Positions 848 to 13,401 of a DNA stretch of 28,711 nucleotides are shown here, in pieces; within the stretch, counting starts at the first letter, position 1; every line of letters begins with the position of its first letter. The stretch lies in the NCBI RefSeq assembly GCF_004376175.1, contig NZ_SNUY01000045.1, forward strand, positions 1 to 28,711, in the 5' to 3' direction. The notes under the pieces were generated by a model. That model did not search any database. It was not told where the DNA came from and saw only the letters and a list, made by a program, of their open reading frames with translations. The translations under genes and the position numbers were made by a program. This stretch comes from Halalkalibacterium halodurans. Its GTDB lineage: Bacteria; Bacillota; Bacilli; Bacillales; Bacillaceae_D.

Positions 848-1012
848 GAGTTGATGGTGTGATTTGCGAGACTTTTTGATTTTGTGTATAATTCATTTCG
901 AGTCCTCCTTCGTACTAATTAAGGATCAGTAGCTACTGATACCTCGTATCGTACAGGAGGGCTCTTTCTGTTTCAAACCTCAAATTCTTTCATTACAGGA
1001 ATGCTCCTTTAT
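848..1012 (-). mobile_element. Truncated left end of an IS110-family element: non-coding end plus the first 16 codons of the transposase
   Basis: The reverse complement of 848-896 is 49/49 identical to 27695-27743 (ATGAATTATACACAAAATCAAAAAGTCTCGCAAATCACACCATCAACTC). The reverse complement of 897-1012 aligns with 27565-27694, except for scattered substitutions and one replaced hairpin. Confidence 0.8.
864..892 (+). promoter_or_regulatory. Candidate sigmaA promoter inside the IS110 remnant, pointing at the mini-array
   Basis: TTGCGA (864-869), a 17-nt spacer, then TATAAT (887-892). The first repeat of the mini-array starts at 1033. Confidence 0.4.
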
Positions 1013-1032
1013 GTTTTTTTAAATACTAAACC

Positions 1033-1316
1033 GTCGCACTCTACATGGGTGCGTGGATTGAAATTGCTACTTCATGCGGCTGCTACGGAGTGACGGCAAA
1101 GTCGCACTCTATATGAGTGCGTGGATTGAAATAATGTCTTGATTTTGCCATATGCCGTACCTGTGTAAGTCGCACTCTACACGAGTGCGTGGATTGAAAT
1201 CGTCAGCGTACGAAGATCCTTCATAGCCGTAGAAGTCGCACTCTACATGGGTGCGTGGATTGAAATTTTGATATTGCCGTATTTCTATCTCCGTTCGCTG
1301 CGTCGCACTCTACATA
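1033..1316 (+). CRISPR. Small I-C type CRISPR array: 4 variant repeats plus a truncated fifth
   Basis: 32-nt repeats start at 1033, 1101, 1169 and 1235. They read GTCGCACTCTACATGGGTGCGTGGATTGAAAT, with stem/loop variants TATATGAG and TACACGAG. Spacers are 36, 36, 34 and 35 nt. At 1302 only GTCGCACTCTACAT remains. Orientation matches the main array. Confidence 0.9.
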
Positions 1317-1436
1317 GCGCCCCTGCACCAACATCATCGAGCGGTGACACCCGATGACACCTAAAACTTTCATCATACGTGTCGCCATTCTCCATAAAGT
1401 GGCCCCTGTAAACAAGCGAACTTATACTCATGTGAA

Positions 1437-1480
1437 ATAACCTTTTCTCCTTTTAAACCGAGAGAAGGTTATTTGCTTTC
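1437..1480 (+). terminator. Candidate intrinsic terminator downstream of the mini-array
   Basis: ATAACCTTTTCTC (1437-1449) pairs with GAGAGAAGGTTAT (1460-1472) with one mismatch, and is followed by TTGCTTTCTC. Confidence 0.4.
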
Positions 1481-1659
1481 TCTATCTAAATTCCCATGCA
1501 TCTAATGAAAACGACCAAACACGGTGACTTCCCCAAATAAAAATGGGCCTCGCGAAATCGTTATAGTCTTTTACCCTACCTTTAGACCGCAACTAAAGGA
1601 CAATAAGCTAGAAAAAGAGGGAATTATGTCTATATTTTGATGATTTTTGGCGCATAGTC

Positions 1660-1668
1660 TGGTAAAAT
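1660..1668 (+). promoter_or_regulatory. Candidate extended -10 promoter for cas3
   Basis: TGgTAAAAT at 1660-1668, about 40 nt upstream of the cas3 ATG. No good -35 element is visible. Confidence 0.3.
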
Positions 1669-1706
1669 GTACATAATTAAGTAAATCTATTATAGGAGAT
1701 TCGATT

Positions 1707-4109
1707 ATGTACATTGCCCATATTCGAGAGGTTGATAAGGTGATTCAGACCCTTAAAGAGCACTTGTGCGGTGTCCAATGTTTAGCCGAAACGTTTGGAG
1801 CGAAATTGAGGTTACAACATGTAGCTGGATTGGCGGGGCTCCTCCACGATCTAGGGAAATACACGAATGAATTCAAAGATTATATCTATAAAGCTGTGTT
1901 TGAGCCCGAGTTAGCTGAGAAAAAGAGAGGTCAAGTTGACCATTCCACGGCAGGGGGCAGATTGTTATACCAAATGCTTCATGACAGAGAGAACTCCTTC
2001 CACGAAAAGCTTCTTGCCGAAGTTGTTGGTAATGCCATTATTTCACACCATTCTAACTTGCAAGACTACATTTCTCCCACCATAGAATCAAACTTCCTTA
2101 CGCGTGTTTTAGAAAAAGAACTGCCAGAATATGAGTCAGCGGTTGAGCGATTTTTTCAAGAGGTCATGACAGAAGCGGAATTGGCTAGGTATGTAGCTAA
2201 AGCGGTAGACGAAATAAAGCAGTTCACGGATAACAGCCCAACACAAAGCTTTTTCCTCACAAAATACATTTTCAGTTGTTTAATTGATGCGGATCGTACG
2301 AATAGTCGAATGTTTGATGAACAAGCTAGGGAAGAAGAACCGACTCAGCCTCAACAGTTGTTTGAGCACTATCATCAACAATTGCTCAACCATCTTGCTT
2401 CATTAAAAGAAAGCGACAGTGCGCAGAAACCAATTAATGTACTGCGGTCTGCTATGTCTGAGCAGTGCGAGTCATTTGCCATGCGGCCATCTGGTATTTA
2501 CACGCTATCCATTCCGACAGGGGGTGGGAAAACGCTGGCTAGCCTTCGCTACGCATTAAAACATGCTCAAGAATATAACAAACAGAGAATTATTTATATT
2601 GTTCCTTTTACTACAATCATAGAACAGAATGCCCAAGAAGTAAGAAACATCTTGGGAGATGACGAAAACATTTTAGAACATCATTCAAATGTAGTCGAAG
2701 ACAGCGAGAACGGTGACGAGCAAGAGGATGGAGTCATCACGAAAAAGGAGCGGCTGAGGCTCGCCCGAGACAATTGGGATCGCCCGATTATCTTTACCAC
2801 CCTTGTCCAATTCCTCAATGTTTTTTATGCGAAAGGTAACCGTAATACGCGGCGTTTACACAACTTAAGCCATTCCGTCTTAATTTTTGATGAAGTGCAG
2901 AAAGTACCGACCAAATGCGTTTCTCTTTTTAACGAAGCCCTTAACTTTCTTAAAGAGTTTGCACATTGCAGTATTCTTCTCTGTACAGCGACTCAACCTA
3001 CCCTCGAAAATGTAAAACATAGTCTCCTGAAAGACCGGGATGGGGAAATCGTGCAGAATTTGACTGAAGTCTCCGAAGCTTTTAAACGAGTTGAGATTCT
3101 AGATAAAACGGATCAGCCAATGACCAATGAGAGGTTAGCAGAATGGGTTAGAGACGAGGCGCCATCATGGGGCAGTACGCTCATCATTCTGAATACCAAA
3201 AAGGTTGTCAAAGACTTGTATGAAAAGCTAGAGGGTGGGCCTTTGCCAGTTTTCCATTTAAGTACATCGATGTGCGCTGCTCACCGCAAGGACCAGTTAG
3301 ATGAAATTCGGGCATTGCTTAAAGAAGGTACTCCGTTTATTTGCGTGACCACTCAATTGATTGAAGCAGGGGTCGACGTCAGCTTTAAATGTGTGATCCG
3401 CTCACTTGCTGGACTCGATTCAATTGCTCAAGCGGCTGGGAGATGCAATCGACATGGGGAAGAGCAGTTGCAATACGTATACGTGATTGATCATGCGGAG
3501 GAAACGTTATCGAAGTTGAAAGAAATTGAGGTTGGGCAGGAGATTGCCGGAAATGTCCTTGCCAGATTTAAAAAGAAGGCAGAGAAATATGAAGGGAATT
3601 TGCTCTCTCAAGCAGCAATGCGTGAATACTTTCGATATTACTACAGTAAAATGGACGCTAATTTAAATTACTTTGTCAAAGAAGTCGACAAAGACATGAC
3701 CAAGCTTTTGATGAGTCATGCTGTGGAAAATAGCTATGTCACCTACTATCAAAAAAAGACAGGTACTCATTTCCCTCTCTTATTAAATGGAAGCTATAAG
3801 ACGGCAGCTGACCATTTTCGCGTCATTGATCATAATACGACCTCGGCTATCGTCCCATACGGAGAAGGCCAGGACATTATTGCTCAATTAAACAGTGGAG
3901 AGTGGGTTGACGACTTATCAAAGGTGTTGAAAAAGGCGCAGCAGTATACAGTCACCCTTTATTCACAAGAAATTGACCAGTTAAAAAAGGAAGGCGCCAT
4001 CGTTATGCATTTGGACGGTATGGTGTATGAATTAAAGGAAAGCTGGTATAGCCACGAGTACGGAGTTGATTTCAAAGGAGAAGGCGGGATGGACTTTATG
4101 TCATGGTAA
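1707..4109 (+). CDS. cas3: Cas3 HD nuclease / SF2 helicase
   Basis: 800-aa ORF. It has an N-terminal HD region (HDLGKY, ISHHSNL, DADRTNS), Walker A-like PTGGGKT and an FDEVQ box. The SD GGAG lies 8 nt before the ATG, and it is the first gene of a I-C cas operon. Confidence 0.95.
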   Translation: MYIAHIREVDKVIQTLKEHLCGVQCLAETFGAKLRLQHVAGLAGLLHDLGKYTNEFKDYIYKAVFEPELAEKKRGQVDHSTAGGRLLYQMLHDRENSFHEKLLAEVVGNAIISHHSNLQDYISPTIESNFLTRVLEKELPEYESAVERFFQEVMTEAELARYVAKAVDEIKQFTDNSPTQSFFLTKYIFSCLIDADRTNSRMFDEQAREEEPTQPQQLFEHYHQQLLNHLASLKESDSAQKPINVLRSAMSEQCESFAMRPSGIYTLSIPTGGGKTLASLRYALKHAQEYNKQRIIYIVPFTTIIEQNAQEVRNILGDDENILEHHSNVVEDSENGDEQEDGVITKKERLRLARDNWDRPIIFTTLVQFLNVFYAKGNRNTRRLHNLSHSVLIFDEVQKVPTKCVSLFNEALNFLKEFAHCSILLCTATQPTLENVKHSLLKDRDGEIVQNLTEVSEAFKRVEILDKTDQPMTNERLAEWVRDEAPSWGSTLIILNTKKVVKDLYEKLEGGPLPVFHLSTSMCAAHRKDQLDEIRALLKEGTPFICVTTQLIEAGVDVSFKCVIRSLAGLDSIAQAAGRCNRHGEEQLQYVYVIDHAEETLSKLKEIEVGQEIAGNVLARFKKKAEKYEGNLLSQAAMREYFRYYYSKMDANLNYFVKEVDKDMTKLLMSHAVENSYVTYYQKKTGTHFPLLLNGSYKTAADHFRVIDHNTTSAIVPYGEGQDIIAQLNSGEWVDDLSKVLKKAQQYTVTLYSQEIDQLKKEGAIVMHLDGMVYELKESWYSHEYGVDFKGEGGMDFMSW

Positions 4110-4113
4110 AAGA

Positions 4114-4133
4114 CCTATCTTATTGCAGATAGG
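4114..4133. terminator. 7-bp hairpin just after the cas3 stop. On the minus strand it is followed by UCUUUU.
   Basis: CCTATCT (4114-4120), loop TATTGC, AGATAGG (4127-4133). The plus-strand tail is CTTTCGT and the minus-strand tail is TCTTTTA. Confidence 0.4.
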
Positions 4134-4154
4134 CTTTCGTACATACTTATTATT

Positions 4155-4186
4155 ACTTCAATCCACGCACTCGTATAGAGTGCGAC
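4155..4186 (-). repeat. Solitary CRISPR repeat in inverted orientation between cas3 and cas5
   Basis: The minus strand reads GTCGCACTCTATACGAGTGCGTGGATTGAAGT, 27/32 identical to the array repeat. The stem CGCACTC/GAGTGCG is intact and the 11-nt handle is 10/11. Confidence 0.9.
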
Positions 4187-4269
4187 ATCATGCTGTGGAA
4201 GTTATTCATTGCTCAAGCTCAATCCCTAATTAAGAATTAATTTATGACAATTGAATCAGATTAGAACTT

Positions 4270-4298
4270 ATTCTAAAAAATTTGGATTGATTTTTCAA
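4270..4298 (-). promoter_or_regulatory. Candidate sigmaA promoter for the antisense crRNA-like RNA
   Basis: On the minus strand: TTGAAA (4298->4293), a 17-nt spacer, then TAGAAT (4275->4270). Confidence 0.45.
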
Positions 4299-4317
4299 TA
4301 AAAAGTAAGTACGTACG
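4294..4317 (+). promoter_or_regulatory. Candidate Cascade binding site: TTC PAM plus a partial protospacer matching the crRNA-like RNA
   Basis: TTC lies at 4294-4296. Then 4297-4317, AATAAAAAGTAAGTACGTACG, is compared with the guide AATAATAAGTATGTACGAAAG. The mismatches are at positions 6, 12, 18 and 20. Confidence 0.55.
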
Positions 4318-4365
4318 TTTCCCACCTTGACTGCATATATTTAGTGCAGAGAGGAGGAAAAAAGA

Positions 4366-4443
4366 ATGATAACAGTTCTAATTAGCGTAAAAATCGAGAT
4401 TCTCTACCCAAAAATTTTATTACGAATAGTAAAAGCAATCTAA
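4366..4443 (+). CDS. 25-codon micro-ORF (MITVLISVKIEILYPKILLRIVKAI) with a consensus SD. Function unknown; it may not be translated.
   Basis: AGGAGG at 4352-4357 sits 8 nt before the ATG at 4366, and TAA is at 4441-4443. The ORF is too short for the ORF track. Confidence 0.3.
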   Translation: MITVLISVKIEILYPKILLRIVKAI

Positions 4444-4460
4444 AAGAGAATTTCTGAGAA

Positions 4461-4500
4461 TATCGCAGTCTGATTAAAGGAATACATTCAGGCTGCGATA
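4461..4500 (+). other. Hairpin immediately upstream of the cas5 SD
   Basis: TATCGCAGTCTGA (4461-4473) pairs with TTCAGGCTGCGATA (4487-4500) with one mismatch. No U-run follows, and the cas5 SD AGGAGG starts at 4510. Confidence 0.3.
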
Positions 4501-4517
4501 CCCCATAAAGGAGGTGA

Positions 4518-5237
<720 letters not shown>

Positions 5238-10127: not shown

Positions 10128-13100
10128 GTCGCACTCTTCATGGGTGCGTGGATTGAAATCTAACGAATTAAATTACATCGTCGAAGAAATCACGTCGCAC
10201 TCTTCATGGGTGCGTGGATTGAAATTGCGACTCCCCACTCACCATCACAAACGATCCTTGTCGCACTCTTCATGGGTGCGTGGATTGAAATGCGCCTCTT
10301 CCATCGTGATCCCCTCAGCCTTGGCGTCGCACTCTTCATGGGTGCGTGGATTGAAATAAGACATTAGCTTTTTTCTAAAAGCAAGAAAGCGAGTCGCACT
10401 CTTCATGGGTGCGTGGATTGAAATTTTTGTGATGAGATTCGTGGAGCCCAAGCGTTCAACGTCGCACTCTTCATGGGTGCGTGGATTGAAATTTTCGCAT
10501 AAACAGACATAGCTTTGACTTGCCCTGTCGCACTCTTCATGGGTGCGTGGATTGAAATTAATTGAAGTAGCTTCAAGGCTGAAAGAGGAACGGTCGCACT
10601 CTTCATGGGTGCGTGGATTGAAATACCGTATGCGTATTGTTAAGGTTTTGGAAGAACAGTCGCACTCTTCATGGGTGCGTGGATTGAAATCAGAAGCGAG
10701 GGAGCTAGCGGACAAGATTACAACGTCGCACTCTTCATGGGTGCGTGGATTGAAATCAGTCGGCTTATATCAAATTTTTAGAAAAAGAAGTCGCACTCTT
10801 CATGGGTGCGTGGATTGAAATCCTCCGCCTTTGTAGTAAATCTTTTTATCGCCAGGTCGCACTCTTCATGGGTGCGTGGATTGAAATATTAGAGCGAAAT
10901 CGCTAAAGAAAGTATTTAAAGTCGCACTCTTCATGGGTGCGTGGATTGAAATATACTCACTACATTGCAAGATGTAGGCGCTACTGGTCGCACTCTTCAT
11001 GGGTGCGTGGATTGAAATGCCCGAAAAACCTTGAAGTTGTCTGGAAGGACACGTCGCACTCTTCATGGGTGCGTGGATTGAAATTGATGACGTTTCTATA
11101 TCATCTAATGGTTTTATACGTCGCACTCTTCATGGGTGCGTGGATTGAAATTGGCTATCATCGCAGGATACATTAGTTTTTTGGGGTCGCACTCTTCATG
11201 GGTGCGTGGATTGAAATTTTGGATGAAACCATGAGAGAAATGCAGGCAGAAAGTCGCACTCTTCATGGGTGCGTGGATTGAAATCATCTTTGCCAACTCC
11301 GTCACCGCGAATCAGATAGGTCGCACTCTTCATGGGTGCGTGGATTGAAATTTGCAGCAAACATTCTATGTTTTAAAAAGCGAAAGTCGCACTCTTCATG
11401 GGTGCGTGGATTGAAATTCTCTTGTACCCCCTCAAGTTAGAGGAGATAATGTCGCACTCTTCATGGGTGCGTGGATTGAAATTTCAATCCCGACCGCAAT
11501 TCCTTCTGGGATCCATGTCGCACTCTTCATGGGTGCGTGGATTGAAATGTCTATTGTAAACTCACCTAAAGTATTATAAAATGTCGCACTCTTCATGGGT
11601 GCGTGGATTGAAATTGAGCCACACTAGAGTCTACCTATTCCTCCACCGGTCGCACTCTTCATGGGTGCGTGGATTGAAATGATTAAGTGATGTAAGTTGC
11701 CGTATTCGTCGACTCGTCGCACTCTTCATGGGTGCGTGGATTGAAATATTTGCTACATCGTGATATGTTCCCGTCCATTGTGTCGCACTCTTCATGGGTG
11801 CGTGGATTGAAATATTCATATCGATCCACAGATCGCCTAAGGCGGGAGTCGCACTCTTCATGGGTGCGTGGATTGAAATGATACCACACGATTTATAGAT
11901 ACCATCGATGACGGTCGCACTCTTCATGGGTGCGTGGATTGAAATTCGTGAGCTTTCAATAGCGGTGTTAGCTGATCCATGTCGCACTCTTCATGGGTGC
12001 GTGGATTGAAATCTTGCGTGACTTTCTTTTCCGCGTATTCTTGTACGTCGCACTCTTCATGGGTGCGTGGATTGAAATTCCGCTTTCAAACCCTCTTACA
12101 TAGTTCCTTCCACGTCGCACTCTTCATGGGTGCGTGGATTGAAATAATTAAGTGATGTAAGTTGCCGTATTCGTCGACTGTCGCACTCTTCATGGGTGCG
12201 TGGATTGAAATGCCCCGCCAATGGCTTTATCCATTCCACCTTTAGGTCGCACTCTTCATGGGTGCGTGGATTGAAATCTCCTGGTGAGTTGACATATAGA
12301 TTAATAGTGTCGTCGCACTCTTCATGGGTGCGTGGATTGAAATCTCCTGGTGAGTTGACATATAGATTAATAGTGTCGTCGCACTCTTCATGGGTGCGTG
12401 GATTGAAATCTCGAATAACCTAAACCTCGTTGAATACTTATCTCGTCGCACTCTTCATGGGTGCGTGGATTGAAATGTAACTTATCTGCAGATAGAATAT
12501 TCTTGTACCAAGTCGCACTCTTCATGGGTGCGTGGATTGAAATAATTAAGTGATGTAAGTTGCCGTATTCGTCGACTGTCGCACTCTTCATGGGTGCGTG
12601 GATTGAAATCTTCTGTGTCACGGTACTTATCGACTTCAAAAAGCACGTCGCACTCTTCATGGGTGCGTGGATTGAAATCCGTCCATTGTCTGACATGACG
12701 TTGTGACATCCATGTCGCACTCTTCATGGGTGCGTGGATTGAAATCATCCTGTAAGGTTTTATTTAGCTCGATAAAGGGTCGCACTCTTCATGGGTGCGT
12801 GGATTGAAATATCCGTACCATACAATTCTTGCGTAAAAAATGTTGTCGCACTCTTCATGGGTGCGTGGATTGAAATTATACAGCGGAAATCCAAGAAGCC
12901 TTTAAGCCAGAGTCGCACTCTTCATGGGTGCGTGGATTGAAATTTTTTTAGCACGCTCATATGCACTTATAATGTCCGTCGCACTCTTCATGGGTGCGTG
13001 GATTGAAATGAGAAAGTCAACGTATCGTGCTGTGATTCTGCGCCCGTCGCACTCTTCATGGGTGCGTGGATTGAAATTTTCGAGAAAGTCAACGTATCGA

Positions 13101-13401
13101 GCGGTTATCCTGTCGCACTCTTCATGGGTGCGTGGATTGAAATTCCTGCCCACTCTAATAATCTAGCTTGGTTTTCTGTCGCACTCTTCATGGGTGCGTG
13201 GATTGAAATAAGATAAAACTCAAAGACTTGAAGGACGTGAACAGGTCGCACTCTTCATGGGTGCGTGGATTGAAATTAACACAAGCCGGTTTAATTCTAG
13301 TGGCGAAAACGGTCGCACTCTTCATGGGTGCGTGGATTGAAATATGCCTCTCAATCATGCTTGATCCGGGTGACACTCATGAACGTGTATTCGAATAAAA
13401 T
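10128..13401 (+). CRISPR. Main I-C CRISPR array: 49 identical 32-nt repeats, 48 spacers (33-37 nt) and a degenerate terminal repeat
   Basis: GTCGCACTCTTCATGGGTGCGTGGATTGAAAT was counted at 49 positions, with the first at 10128 and the last at 13312-13343. The degenerate copy GTGACACTCATGAACGTGTATTCGAATAAAAT at 13370-13401 matches about 17/32. Confidence 0.98.

Follow-up and report, generated by a model that had tools for sequence, protein, structure and literature searches.

Why does a type I-C CRISPR-Cas operon (CRISPR, from short palindromic repeats that are clustered and regularly interspaced), in which the genes are otherwise packed together, keep a wide space between cas3 and cas5? This question is raised by contig NZ_SNUY01000045.1 of Halalkalibacterium halodurans (assembly GCF_004376175.1), of which positions 1 to 28,711 were analysed; this whole stretch of 28,711 nucleotides (nt) is referred to as the window hereafter. 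The window contains a complete type I-C locus (cas3, cas5, cas8c, cas7, cas4, cas1, cas2). The open reading frame (ORF) of cas3 occupies 1707–4109, with the stop codon at 4107–4109, and that of cas5 occupies 4527–5237. The gap between them is 417 nt, while all remaining cas junctions overlap. A preliminary description of this DNA, made from the sequence alone, had noted this gap amid a compact operon, and its coordinates agree with ours; it had proposed that an antisense, degenerate mini-CRISPR with its own promoter and terminator resides there. Our analysis leads to a related but different answer. With a probability of roughly 0.8, the element in the gap appears, from its sequence, to be the gene for a regulatory RNA resembling a CRISPR RNA (crRNA), that is, a crRNA-like RNA (crlRNA) of the CreR or solitary repeat unit (SRU) kind, which belongs to the I-C system itself.

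Guide, target and repeat in the cas3–cas5 gap

The following features of the gap are needed for the argument. An arrow denotes that the minus strand is read, and PAM stands for protospacer-adjacent motif.

4298→4270, minus strand: predicted promoter of the small RNA, TTGAAA-17-TAGAAT
4248→4216, minus strand: stretch described earlier as a decayed repeat; a hairpin of A and T only (AATTAA/TTAATT), then AGGGATTGAGCT
4186→4155, minus strand: solitary repeat-like sequence (psiR), GTCGCACTCTATACGAGTGCGTGGATTGAAGT
4184→4166, minus strand: 7-bp stem of psiR, CGCACTC/GAGTGCG, kept in the computed fold
4155–4165, minus strand: predicted 11-nt 5′ handle, TGGATTGAAGT; 10/11 identical to the handle of the array repeats
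4154→4136, minus strand: guide segment (psiS), AATAATAAGTATGTACGAA
4133→4114, minus strand: 3′ hairpin (CCTATCT, loop GCAATA, AGATAGG), kept in the minimum-free-energy fold
4113→4108, minus strand: UCUUUU tail of the 3′ hairpin
4284–4290, plus strand: handle-like GGATTGA, just upstream of the PAM
4294–4296, plus strand: TTC PAM, directly 5′ of the target
4297–4315, plus strand: protospacer-like target, the predicted Cascade binding site, AATAAAAAGTAAGTACGTA

The relationship between the guide and the target provides the principal clue. The two are 142 nt apart and match at 16 of 19 positions: pairing is found at positions 1–5, 7–11, 13–17 and 19, and mismatches occur only at positions 6, 12 and 18. 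In type I Cascade, every sixth base of the crRNA is flipped out and unpaired. Because the mismatches sit on just these flipped-out bases and the target is preceded by a TTC PAM, the match looks like a Cascade binding site composed of three paired 5-nt segments, far below the 33–37 nt of the array spacers. The match obtained a seed score of 19 with the TTC PAM, and the next-best score anywhere in the window, with 57 kb of sequence searched, was 9. Shuffled guides never attained the observed score (p ≤ 0.0005), and the identical target was recovered in the window when neither the PAM nor positional weights were used. A partial match adjoined by the cognate PAM, one of the marks of the crlRNA/CreR/SRU class, is therefore present in the gap. 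TTC is reported as the preferred PAM of the B. halodurans I-C system.

The region around the target also resembles the repeat unit. The plus-strand segment 4283–4301, which includes the handle-like GGATTGA, is 74% alike, as an inverted repeat, to 4147–4165: it reads TGGATTGATTTTTCAATAA, similar to the handle plus guide TGGATTGAAGTAATAATAA. A degenerate copy of the repeat unit, in inverted orientation, may be the origin of the target site. Selection is not proven by the match in the window alone; at the level of sequence comparison, it is the pattern across loci, given in the next section, that proves it.

The repeat itself was compared with the two arrays of the window, namely the main array (10128–13343; 49 identical repeats, spacers of 33–37 nt, period of 65–69 nt) and a smaller one at 1033–1330. 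The psiR agrees with the main repeat at 27/32 positions and with two of the repeats at 1033–1330 at 30/32, so it is nearer to the small array than to the main one. A comparable repeat match was found in none of 100 shuffles. The five differences from the main repeat are at positions 11, 12 and 14 (loop), 16 (stem) and 31 (handle), and the change at position 16 converts the stem pair U·G to U–A. The 3′ arm of the hairpin stops exactly before the 11-nt handle. A hairpin of the cognate repeat together with its handle, which characterizes the same class of RNAs, is thus found here with a 7-bp stem and a 10/11 handle, and the unit is located inside the cognate cas operon, as is expected of that class. 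By analogy with the processing of I-C crlRNAs by Cas5c, we infer that Cas5d would cut between 4166 and 4165.

On both sides of the repeat unit, signals for an independent transcript can be recognized. The site TTGAAA-17-TAGAAT is sigma-70-like with a score of 10/12; it was the only promoter-like site obtained by a scan of 3900–4700 and the best in the gap. Its −35 element overlaps the PAM and the first two bases of the target. In relatives, a −10 element of the TGnTATAAT type is found just upstream of psiR. At the other end, the hairpin at 4133→4108 narrowly misses the requirements of a strict terminator scan, and the last 2 nt of its U-tract fall within the cas3 stop codon. Judged from its sequence, this hairpin probably ends the small RNA and acts bidirectionally, serving cas3 as well. 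The computed fold of 4263→4100 retains the repeat hairpin and the 3′ hairpin together. An Rfam scan of 900–4700 by E-value gave two matches, both at chance level and neither in the gap.

Most of this anatomy had been anticipated. The preliminary description gave the repeat at 4186→4155 with 27/32 identity, three of its five changes in the loop, a G·U to A–U change leaving the hairpin intact and a 10/11 handle, and direct comparison with the array repeats reproduced all of them, the sole difference in the handle being that at repeat position 31; the sigmaA-type promoter at 4298→4270 likewise reappeared in our scan. The proposed terminator, a 7-bp hairpin followed by UCUUUU, is present and kept in the fold, but its end has to be moved from 4110 to 4108, because the U-tract reaches 2 nt into the cas3 stop codon. 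The description mentions neither the array at 1033–1330 nor the target, and it is the target on which the proposed function depends.

The module among related I-C loci

To place the element in a wider context, a Cas5d scan restricted to one genome per species was used, by which 80 I-C loci were obtained (individual loci are denoted by L and a number). A survey of I-C loci for an inverted solitary repeat between cas3 and cas5 had been suggested in the preliminary description, and about 35 related loci were found to carry it as part of a module: an antisense solitary repeat, a guide with ~17 pairing bases, a terminator and a TTC-flanked target. In 27 of the 80 loci, a minus-strand repeat hairpin followed by (T/C)GGATTGAAA(A/T), the handle motif conserved among the relatives, lies 150–690 nt upstream of cas5, and the next 16–21 nt match a TTC-flanked plus-strand site located 60–150 nt nearer to cas5. 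About six further loci are variants, in which the target is on the opposite strand or the PAM is CTC, and eight metagenomic contigs add cases. The survey suggests that roughly one in three of the I-C loci sampled at species level has the antisense module, and nearly all of those that have it are from Bacilli.

Three features of the guide–target match were found among these loci. One is the periodicity. When matches were tallied by position in 28 loci, which represent 14 distinct guide groups, positions 1–5 matched in 28/28, positions 7–11 in 25–28/28 and positions 13–17 in 23–26/28, while only 4/28 loci matched at position 6 and 7/28 at each of positions 12 and 18; beyond position 18 the match was at background. 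Another is that the guide and target sequences vary among loci and yet co-vary: the mean seed was 15.1 when a guide was compared with its own gap, and 3.2 when it was compared with the gap of another locus. The last is that the pattern does not depend on the scoring. Since our first scoring scheme favoured a periodic pattern, the search was repeated as a control with the plain Hamming distance over 18 nt, with no PAM requirement and no positional weights. The best match was TTC-flanked in 26 of 27 loci, and its mismatches fell on position 6 in 22 loci, on position 12 in 18 and on position 18 in 19, each of the other positions being mismatched in at most 5 loci.

The repeat unit shows a corresponding conservation. 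The psiR stem ends exactly at the handle in 34 of 37 loci, with compensatory changes (CGCACTC/GAGTGCG, CGTATCT/AGATACG, CACTT/AAGTG and CGTCTT/AAGACG are examples of the co-varying stems), and the hairpin is reduced to 3–7 bp among the relatives. In nearly all loci a second hairpin begins 15–22 nt after the handle; it is usually followed by a U-run, and its stem often contains CCTATC. This cross-locus conservation, a matter of sequence, strongly supports the earlier proposal of a maintained gene that yields one crRNA-like RNA, its 5′ end predicted at 4165, where Cas5d would cut, and its 3′ end close to 4110.

The size of the gap is also informative. The I-C loci with a cas3–cas5 gap of less than 50 nt are without the module. 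Among those whose gap is at least about 180 nt, 27 have the antisense repeat with the plus-strand target, about six have a variant, and six are without an intact module. The gap size follows the presence of the module; in other words, the gap is the module. Two of the variants, L005 and L010, are arranged differently: a TTC-flanked target lies on the minus strand near cas5, a basic or hydrophobic ORF of 27–38 aa follows, and the repeat unit and terminator come after that ORF on the same strand. To judge from this order, the ORF and the crlRNA would be co-transcribed there.

Within the species, the contigs whose Cas5d is identical to that of the window (L085–L090) have three gap states. The gaps of L085, L088 and L089 are base-for-base the same as that of the window. 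L086 and L087, which include CP040441.1, carry another allele with the guide AAAAAAAATAAAAAGTGGA and the target TTC-AAAAATAATAAGAAGTGAA; its guide–target mismatches are again only at positions 6, 12 and 18, and the small ORF downstream of its target differs too. The third state, a deletion, is taken up below. As far as these sequences indicate, the module behaves as an exchangeable cassette.

Proposed regulation and other readings

What would a Cascade bound at 4297–4315 control? The features between the target and cas5 are as follows.

4327–4332, plus strand: TTGACT, −35-like, 12 nt past the paired segment
4350–4357, plus strand: strong ribosome-binding site AGAGGAGG, ahead of the micro-ORF
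4366–4443, plus strand: micro-ORF MITVLISVKIEILYPKILLRIVKAI, 25 aa plus stop
4462–4499, plus strand: 12-bp hairpin ATCGCAGTCTGA/TCAGGCTGCGAT without a U-tract, between the micro-ORF and the cas5 ribosome-binding site

With a terminator hairpin at the end of cas3, there must be a plus-strand promoter within the gap. In 19 of the 28 relatives, a sigma-70-like promoter is indeed found on this strand, its −35 element starting 15–49 nt from target position 1 and often overlapping the end of the paired segment; in compact loci this promoter drives cas5 directly. The subgroup possessing the micro-ORF with the ILK motif described below is generally without a consensus plus-strand promoter. Since none was found in the window, the repressed promoter is postulated here from the relatives and from the need for one after the cas3 terminator.

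The micro-ORF belongs to a family of 24–43 aa with the C-terminal motif (E/D)ILKxIVE(I/V)LK, found in at least eight loci (members in L002, L008, L015, L079, L086 and L095, remnants in L011 and L016), with examples in Amphibacillus, Paenibacillus, Virgibacillus and Halalkalibacter. The translated segments of the fetched loci, 59,308 in all, match this family only between the crlRNA target and cas5. The member in CP040441.1 has 43 aa (MEIELKTIKTKQEKKKEHFPLSKEEQSLEILRNVVEVVRSIVK), and that of the window seems truncated (25 aa versus 35–43 aa in relatives). The family is conserved at the peptide level, with a modest enrichment of differences at third codon positions (199 versus 132 at second positions). 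No Pfam or NCBIfam match and no homology to KilAC were found for it. In other loci with long gaps, unrelated small basic or hydrophobic ORFs occupy the same slot, on either strand. In L034 (Paenibacillus sp. 1011MAR3C5), an ORF of 97 aa (MSKQKGVFSTEFKHQVLQLYENGEAKTRIVREFNLNASTLERW..., −374 to −81 relative to cas5) separates cas5 from the promoter targeted by the crlRNA; its product presumably resembles the helix-turn-helix protein encoded by orfA of insertion sequences. A hairpin at the position equivalent to 4462–4499 precedes cas5 in relatives and in Salipaludibacillus agaradhaerens, and it is a full terminator in L019 and L020; in the window it might serve for attenuation, processing or stabilisation of the RNA.

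From the observed anatomy of the sequence, from its conservation and from the way in which guide and target co-vary, we infer transcription, processing, binding and repression, as well as the identity of the promoter repressed in the window. A minus-strand transcript would begin near 4263. Cas5d would cleave it at the base of the repeat hairpin, so that the RNA would begin at 4165 with the 11-nt handle, and the 3′ end of the RNA would lie in or after the hairpin at 4133–4108. Cascade loaded with this crlRNA would then recognize the TTC PAM at 4294–4296, and the guide would pair with three 5-nt segments of 4297–4315 over ~17 bp. Such a pairing would be too short for Cas3, so that Cascade would remain bound as a repressor. 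Positioned between two divergent units, it would repress both the crlRNA gene and the operon consisting of the micro-ORF (4366–4443) and cas5-cas8c-cas7-cas4-cas1-cas2. Abundant free Cascade would thereby shut off its own synthesis in a negative feedback, and when Cascade is titrated by crRNAs or blocked by anti-CRISPRs, the repression would be relieved.

Several observations weigh against this interpretation. One group concerns the RNA: position −2 of the handle differs from the array handle (A to G), and the handle is only ~21 nt away from the 3′ hairpin, as compared with array spacers of 33–37 nt; by analogy, the assembly of Cascade on so short an RNA would be precedented only in Neisseria. 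Another group concerns the target: a tool scan and a relaxed scan gave no acceptable plus-strand promoter in the window, the TTGACT being without a usable −10 element, and the target could be a recent inverted duplication of the handle plus guide. The last group concerns close relatives: L090, with an identical Cas5d, has a gap of 42 nt from which the module is deleted; in Salipaludibacillus agaradhaerens the repeat is degenerate, with the target-like site, micro-ORF and hairpin kept; and partial deletions of the module are found in L011, L016 and L084. Because of such decay and deletion in some close relatives, the module is considered dispensable, though it is kept in many lineages. The preliminary description had regarded absence from close relatives as an argument against function; this absence is seen in part, but most loci with the gap keep the module. 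As a separate observation on Salipaludibacillus agaradhaerens, L081–L083 have an insert of 400–600 nt, richer in G+C, beside the degenerate repeat (−830 to −330 relative to cas5), which contains strong internal palindromes.

Whether one repeat or two should be counted depends on the stretch at 4248→4216. Its sequence is as given in the preliminary description, and its GGATTGA, which follows a 6-bp A/T hairpin, has the geometry of a real repeat; the resulting unit of 62 nt would be near the 65–69-nt period of the array. However, it has only this heptamer in common with the repeat, and when the 77-nt leader was aligned locally to three variants of the repeat, the result was no better than 24–43% of shuffles, so that similarity over the whole repeat is at chance. 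The heptamer alone gives p ~0.017, and together with the third copy at 4284–4290 it gives p ~0.002; because of these two extra copies in the gap, the stretch may be a real remnant. Neither the second allele of this species nor any relative compared contains it; the conserved unit there is the single psiR with the downstream guide. The term mini-CRISPR, which presupposes at least two recognisable repeats around a spacer of normal length, was therefore given up: a terminator, not a repeat, follows the guide, and because the upstream repeat is at best a remnant, we regard the element as a solitary repeat unit. Two-repeat I-C SRUs do exist, the Gabija-regulating one being an example, but it is improbable that 4248→4216 is still processed and that the 29-nt segment 4215→4187 serves as a second crRNA with its own target, since this segment has no PAM-flanked seed in the window (the best seed, of 8 nt, is not next to a TTC). 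Still further from our expectation is an RNA that does not guide Cascade to DNA at all, and that instead soaks up Cas5d or Cas7 as a decoy or acts in cis as an antisense RNA on the 3′ end of cas3. Solitary repeats of phages are reported to mimic crRNA and inhibit Cas complexes (PMC10651486), and the terminator hairpin is common to the small RNA and cas3. A decoy, however, would not need a co-varying, PAM-flanked match; the overlap with the cas3 mRNA is confined to the terminator; and neither a pattern scan of viral contigs nor blastn of phage records found a phage mimic of the crlRNA. It is scarcely credible, finally, that the element is non-functional debris, such as an array fragment in inverted orientation or the terminal inverted repeats of a small mobile element, with the guide–target match as a by-product. 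Guide and target do formally constitute an inverted repeat, and the region is unstable, with deletions, an allele swap and insertions. Debris would leave unexplained why mismatches are confined to positions 6, 12 and 18, why TTC is found at one arm and why pairing is limited to ~18 nt in 14 guide groups, as well as why the hairpin and handle are kept while the remainder of the repeat varies and why the promoter and terminator of the small RNA are conserved. The terminal inverted repeats of a mobile element were ruled out by the periodic mismatches and the one-sided PAM.

A further reading accepts the same mechanism and assigns a different purpose to the repression: as in the CreTA and CrePA modules, the crlRNA would silence a micro-ORF whose product would be toxic or would arrest growth when Cascade is lost or inhibited, by which the I-C system would become addictive or the cells would be protected against anti-CRISPRs by abortive infection. 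The restriction of the conserved micro-ORF, with its strong ribosome-binding site, to the slot between target and cas5 in one subgroup is consistent with this idea, as are the different small ORFs that fill the slot elsewhere and the hairpin or true terminator that separates the ORF from cas5 in several long-gap loci; the layout also parallels that of CrePA in the cas3–csy1 gap of the Acinetobacter I-F system. On the other hand, about half of the module loci are compact, leaving no room for an ORF, and their target abuts the cas5 promoter. The truncated appearance of the window ORF, its lack of a known family and the modest third-position enrichment also speak against a toxin, as do its 25 codons, which are all ordinary and include none of the tandem rare Arg or Ile codons found in CreT RNAs. 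Moreover, Salipaludibacillus agaradhaerens has lost the crlRNA and yet kept the ORF, which is unexpected for an unrepressed toxin. On balance, a toxin module is a possible but doubtful explanation, and the autorepression of Cascade by the crlRNA is preferred. A broader extension, which we put forward tentatively and consider unlikely to hold in full, is that the crlRNA, in addition to its autorepressive role, controls an undescribed family of 25–43-aa micro-proteins of Bacilli acting as a CRISPR-repressed effector, toxin or Cascade modulator, and that, as a second novelty, Cascade is shortened. If this were true, the micro-protein could make I-C addictive or trigger abortive infection when anti-CRISPRs disable Cascade, and, with a guide region of ~21 nt ahead of the terminator hairpin, the complex might hold fewer Cas7 subunits and be inherently unable to recruit Cas3.

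Known crRNA-like RNAs and the surrounding locus

Regulatory crRNA-like RNAs have been known since 2021; those of type I-C were predicted in 2023 and demonstrated in 2024. The locus in the window is a further member of this described kind. In Neisseria, I-C SRU crlRNAs are encoded between cas3 and cas5c; they have one psiR and an 11-nt handle, are 48–50 nt long, and end in the loop of a hairpin, and their guides match 16 bp of a target that is flanked by a TTC PAM and adjoins a −35 element, position 6 being mismatched; the repression is 21-fold (bioRxiv 10.1101/2024.12.27.630466). The same study assigned to I-C SRUs the regulation of Nezha, Gabija and "CRISIS" defence genes in Neisseria and others (bioRxiv 10.1101/2024.12.27.630466). 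The element described here resembles them in its position in the cas3–cas5 gap, its single hairpin with a predicted 11-nt handle, its short guide with sixth-position mismatches, its TTC PAM, and its 3′ hairpin in place of a second repeat. Unlike them, it is antisense to the cas genes, has a predicted promoter of its own, divergent from the one that it would control, and has a terminator in common with cas3. Its cargo is none (in the compact loci) or a micro-ORF, followed by the Cascade genes, rather than a defence system; its predicted RNA is 40–45 nt from the handle to the hairpin loop, as compared with 48–50 nt; and its hosts belong to Bacilli.

Similar likenesses and differences are found for the other families. 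CreR RNAs, which regulate Cas proteins, have been shown for types I-B, I-E and V-A, and were predicted for I-C by manual search (bioRxiv 10.1101/2023.03.10.532045; Shmakov et al., PMC10120712). With CreR our element has in common a degenerate, CRISPR-derived RNA, a partial match by the effector promoter and a logic of autorepression, proposed here from sequence alone; that logic includes competition by crRNAs and de-repression by anti-CRISPRs, and in compact relatives the target abuts the cas5 promoter. The type I CreRs shown so far have two psi-repeats, unlike the single repeat with a terminator found here, which is as in the V-A CreR, and in the window a micro-ORF intervenes between the target and cas5. 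CreTA (I-B, haloarchaea) and CrePA (I-F, Acinetobacter) are alike in having a crRNA-like RNA in a cas gap and a partial match near a small gene, where the match silences, or here would silence, the promoter of that gene. The micro-ORF, however, does not have the rare codons of a CreT RNA and does not encode a KilAC-domain protein, and many module loci have no ORF; of the marks of a CreTA toxin, the strong ribosome-binding site and the downstream hairpin are present and the tandem rare codons are absent, so that the gene does not qualify as one. Racr, the RNA anti-CRISPRs built from solitary repeats that phages carry (PMC10651486), and phage Cracr RNAs (bioRxiv 10.1101/2024.10.29.618823) are likewise solitary repeat units with their own promoter and terminator. 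The present unit differs in that it is chromosomal, lies in the cas operon of the host and has a guide matching the host's own gap, and no viral copy of it was found in the viral contigs and phage records searched; it is thus not a phage- or plasmid-borne decoy of the Racr type. In the parts of the supplementary tables of the CreR, Shmakov, CRISIS and Cracr studies that were searched, no listing of B. halodurans was found.

What is particular to the H. halodurans element is the antisense, divergent layout, the terminator common with cas3, the minimal hairpin and the micro-ORF cargo. The I-C system of H. (Bacillus) halodurans is a standard for the biochemistry of Cas5d, Cascade and Cas4-Cas1-Cas2, and a built-in RNA switch would explain how the native host sets the expression of Cascade. 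The survey would extend I-C crlRNAs from Neisseria, where they are experimental, to Gram-positive bacteria, where they are predicted. The three kept 5-nt segments with free sixth bases are an evolutionary read-out of the pairing needed for binding without cutting, and the whole, in which a minimal hairpin is combined with an 11-nt handle, ~17 pairing bases and a terminator, represents a compact natural design for a repressor. Among genes that CRISPR may control, the micro-ORF family offers a new and concrete candidate.

As for the setting, the Cas5d of the window is 99% identical to BH0337 of Halalkalibacterium halodurans, and the Pfam assignments of the flanking cas genes were taken from contigs with identical genes. 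Some minor features of the repeats and spacers were also seen. A 13-nt sequence, TCATGCTGTGGAA, occurs twice on the plus strand, in the 3′ part of cas3 (3716–3728) and at 4188–4200 beside psiR. Read on the minus strand, it is the 3′ end of the 29-nt segment 4215→4187, so that the identity with cas3 is at the PAM-distal end; it could be due to chance or be the trace of a rearrangement. The small array upstream of cas3 (1033–1330, plus strand) has four full, heterogeneous repeats, which vary among themselves in the loop and upper stem, and a truncated fifth repeat at 1303. The main array holds two pairs of identical spacers (12146–12179 and 12544–12577; 12278–12311 and 12344–12377), and the spacer at 11681–11714 agrees with the 12146/12544 pair over the first 29 nt compared, except for base 1. 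Taken as sequences, these identities indicate duplications of repeat–spacer units within the main array.

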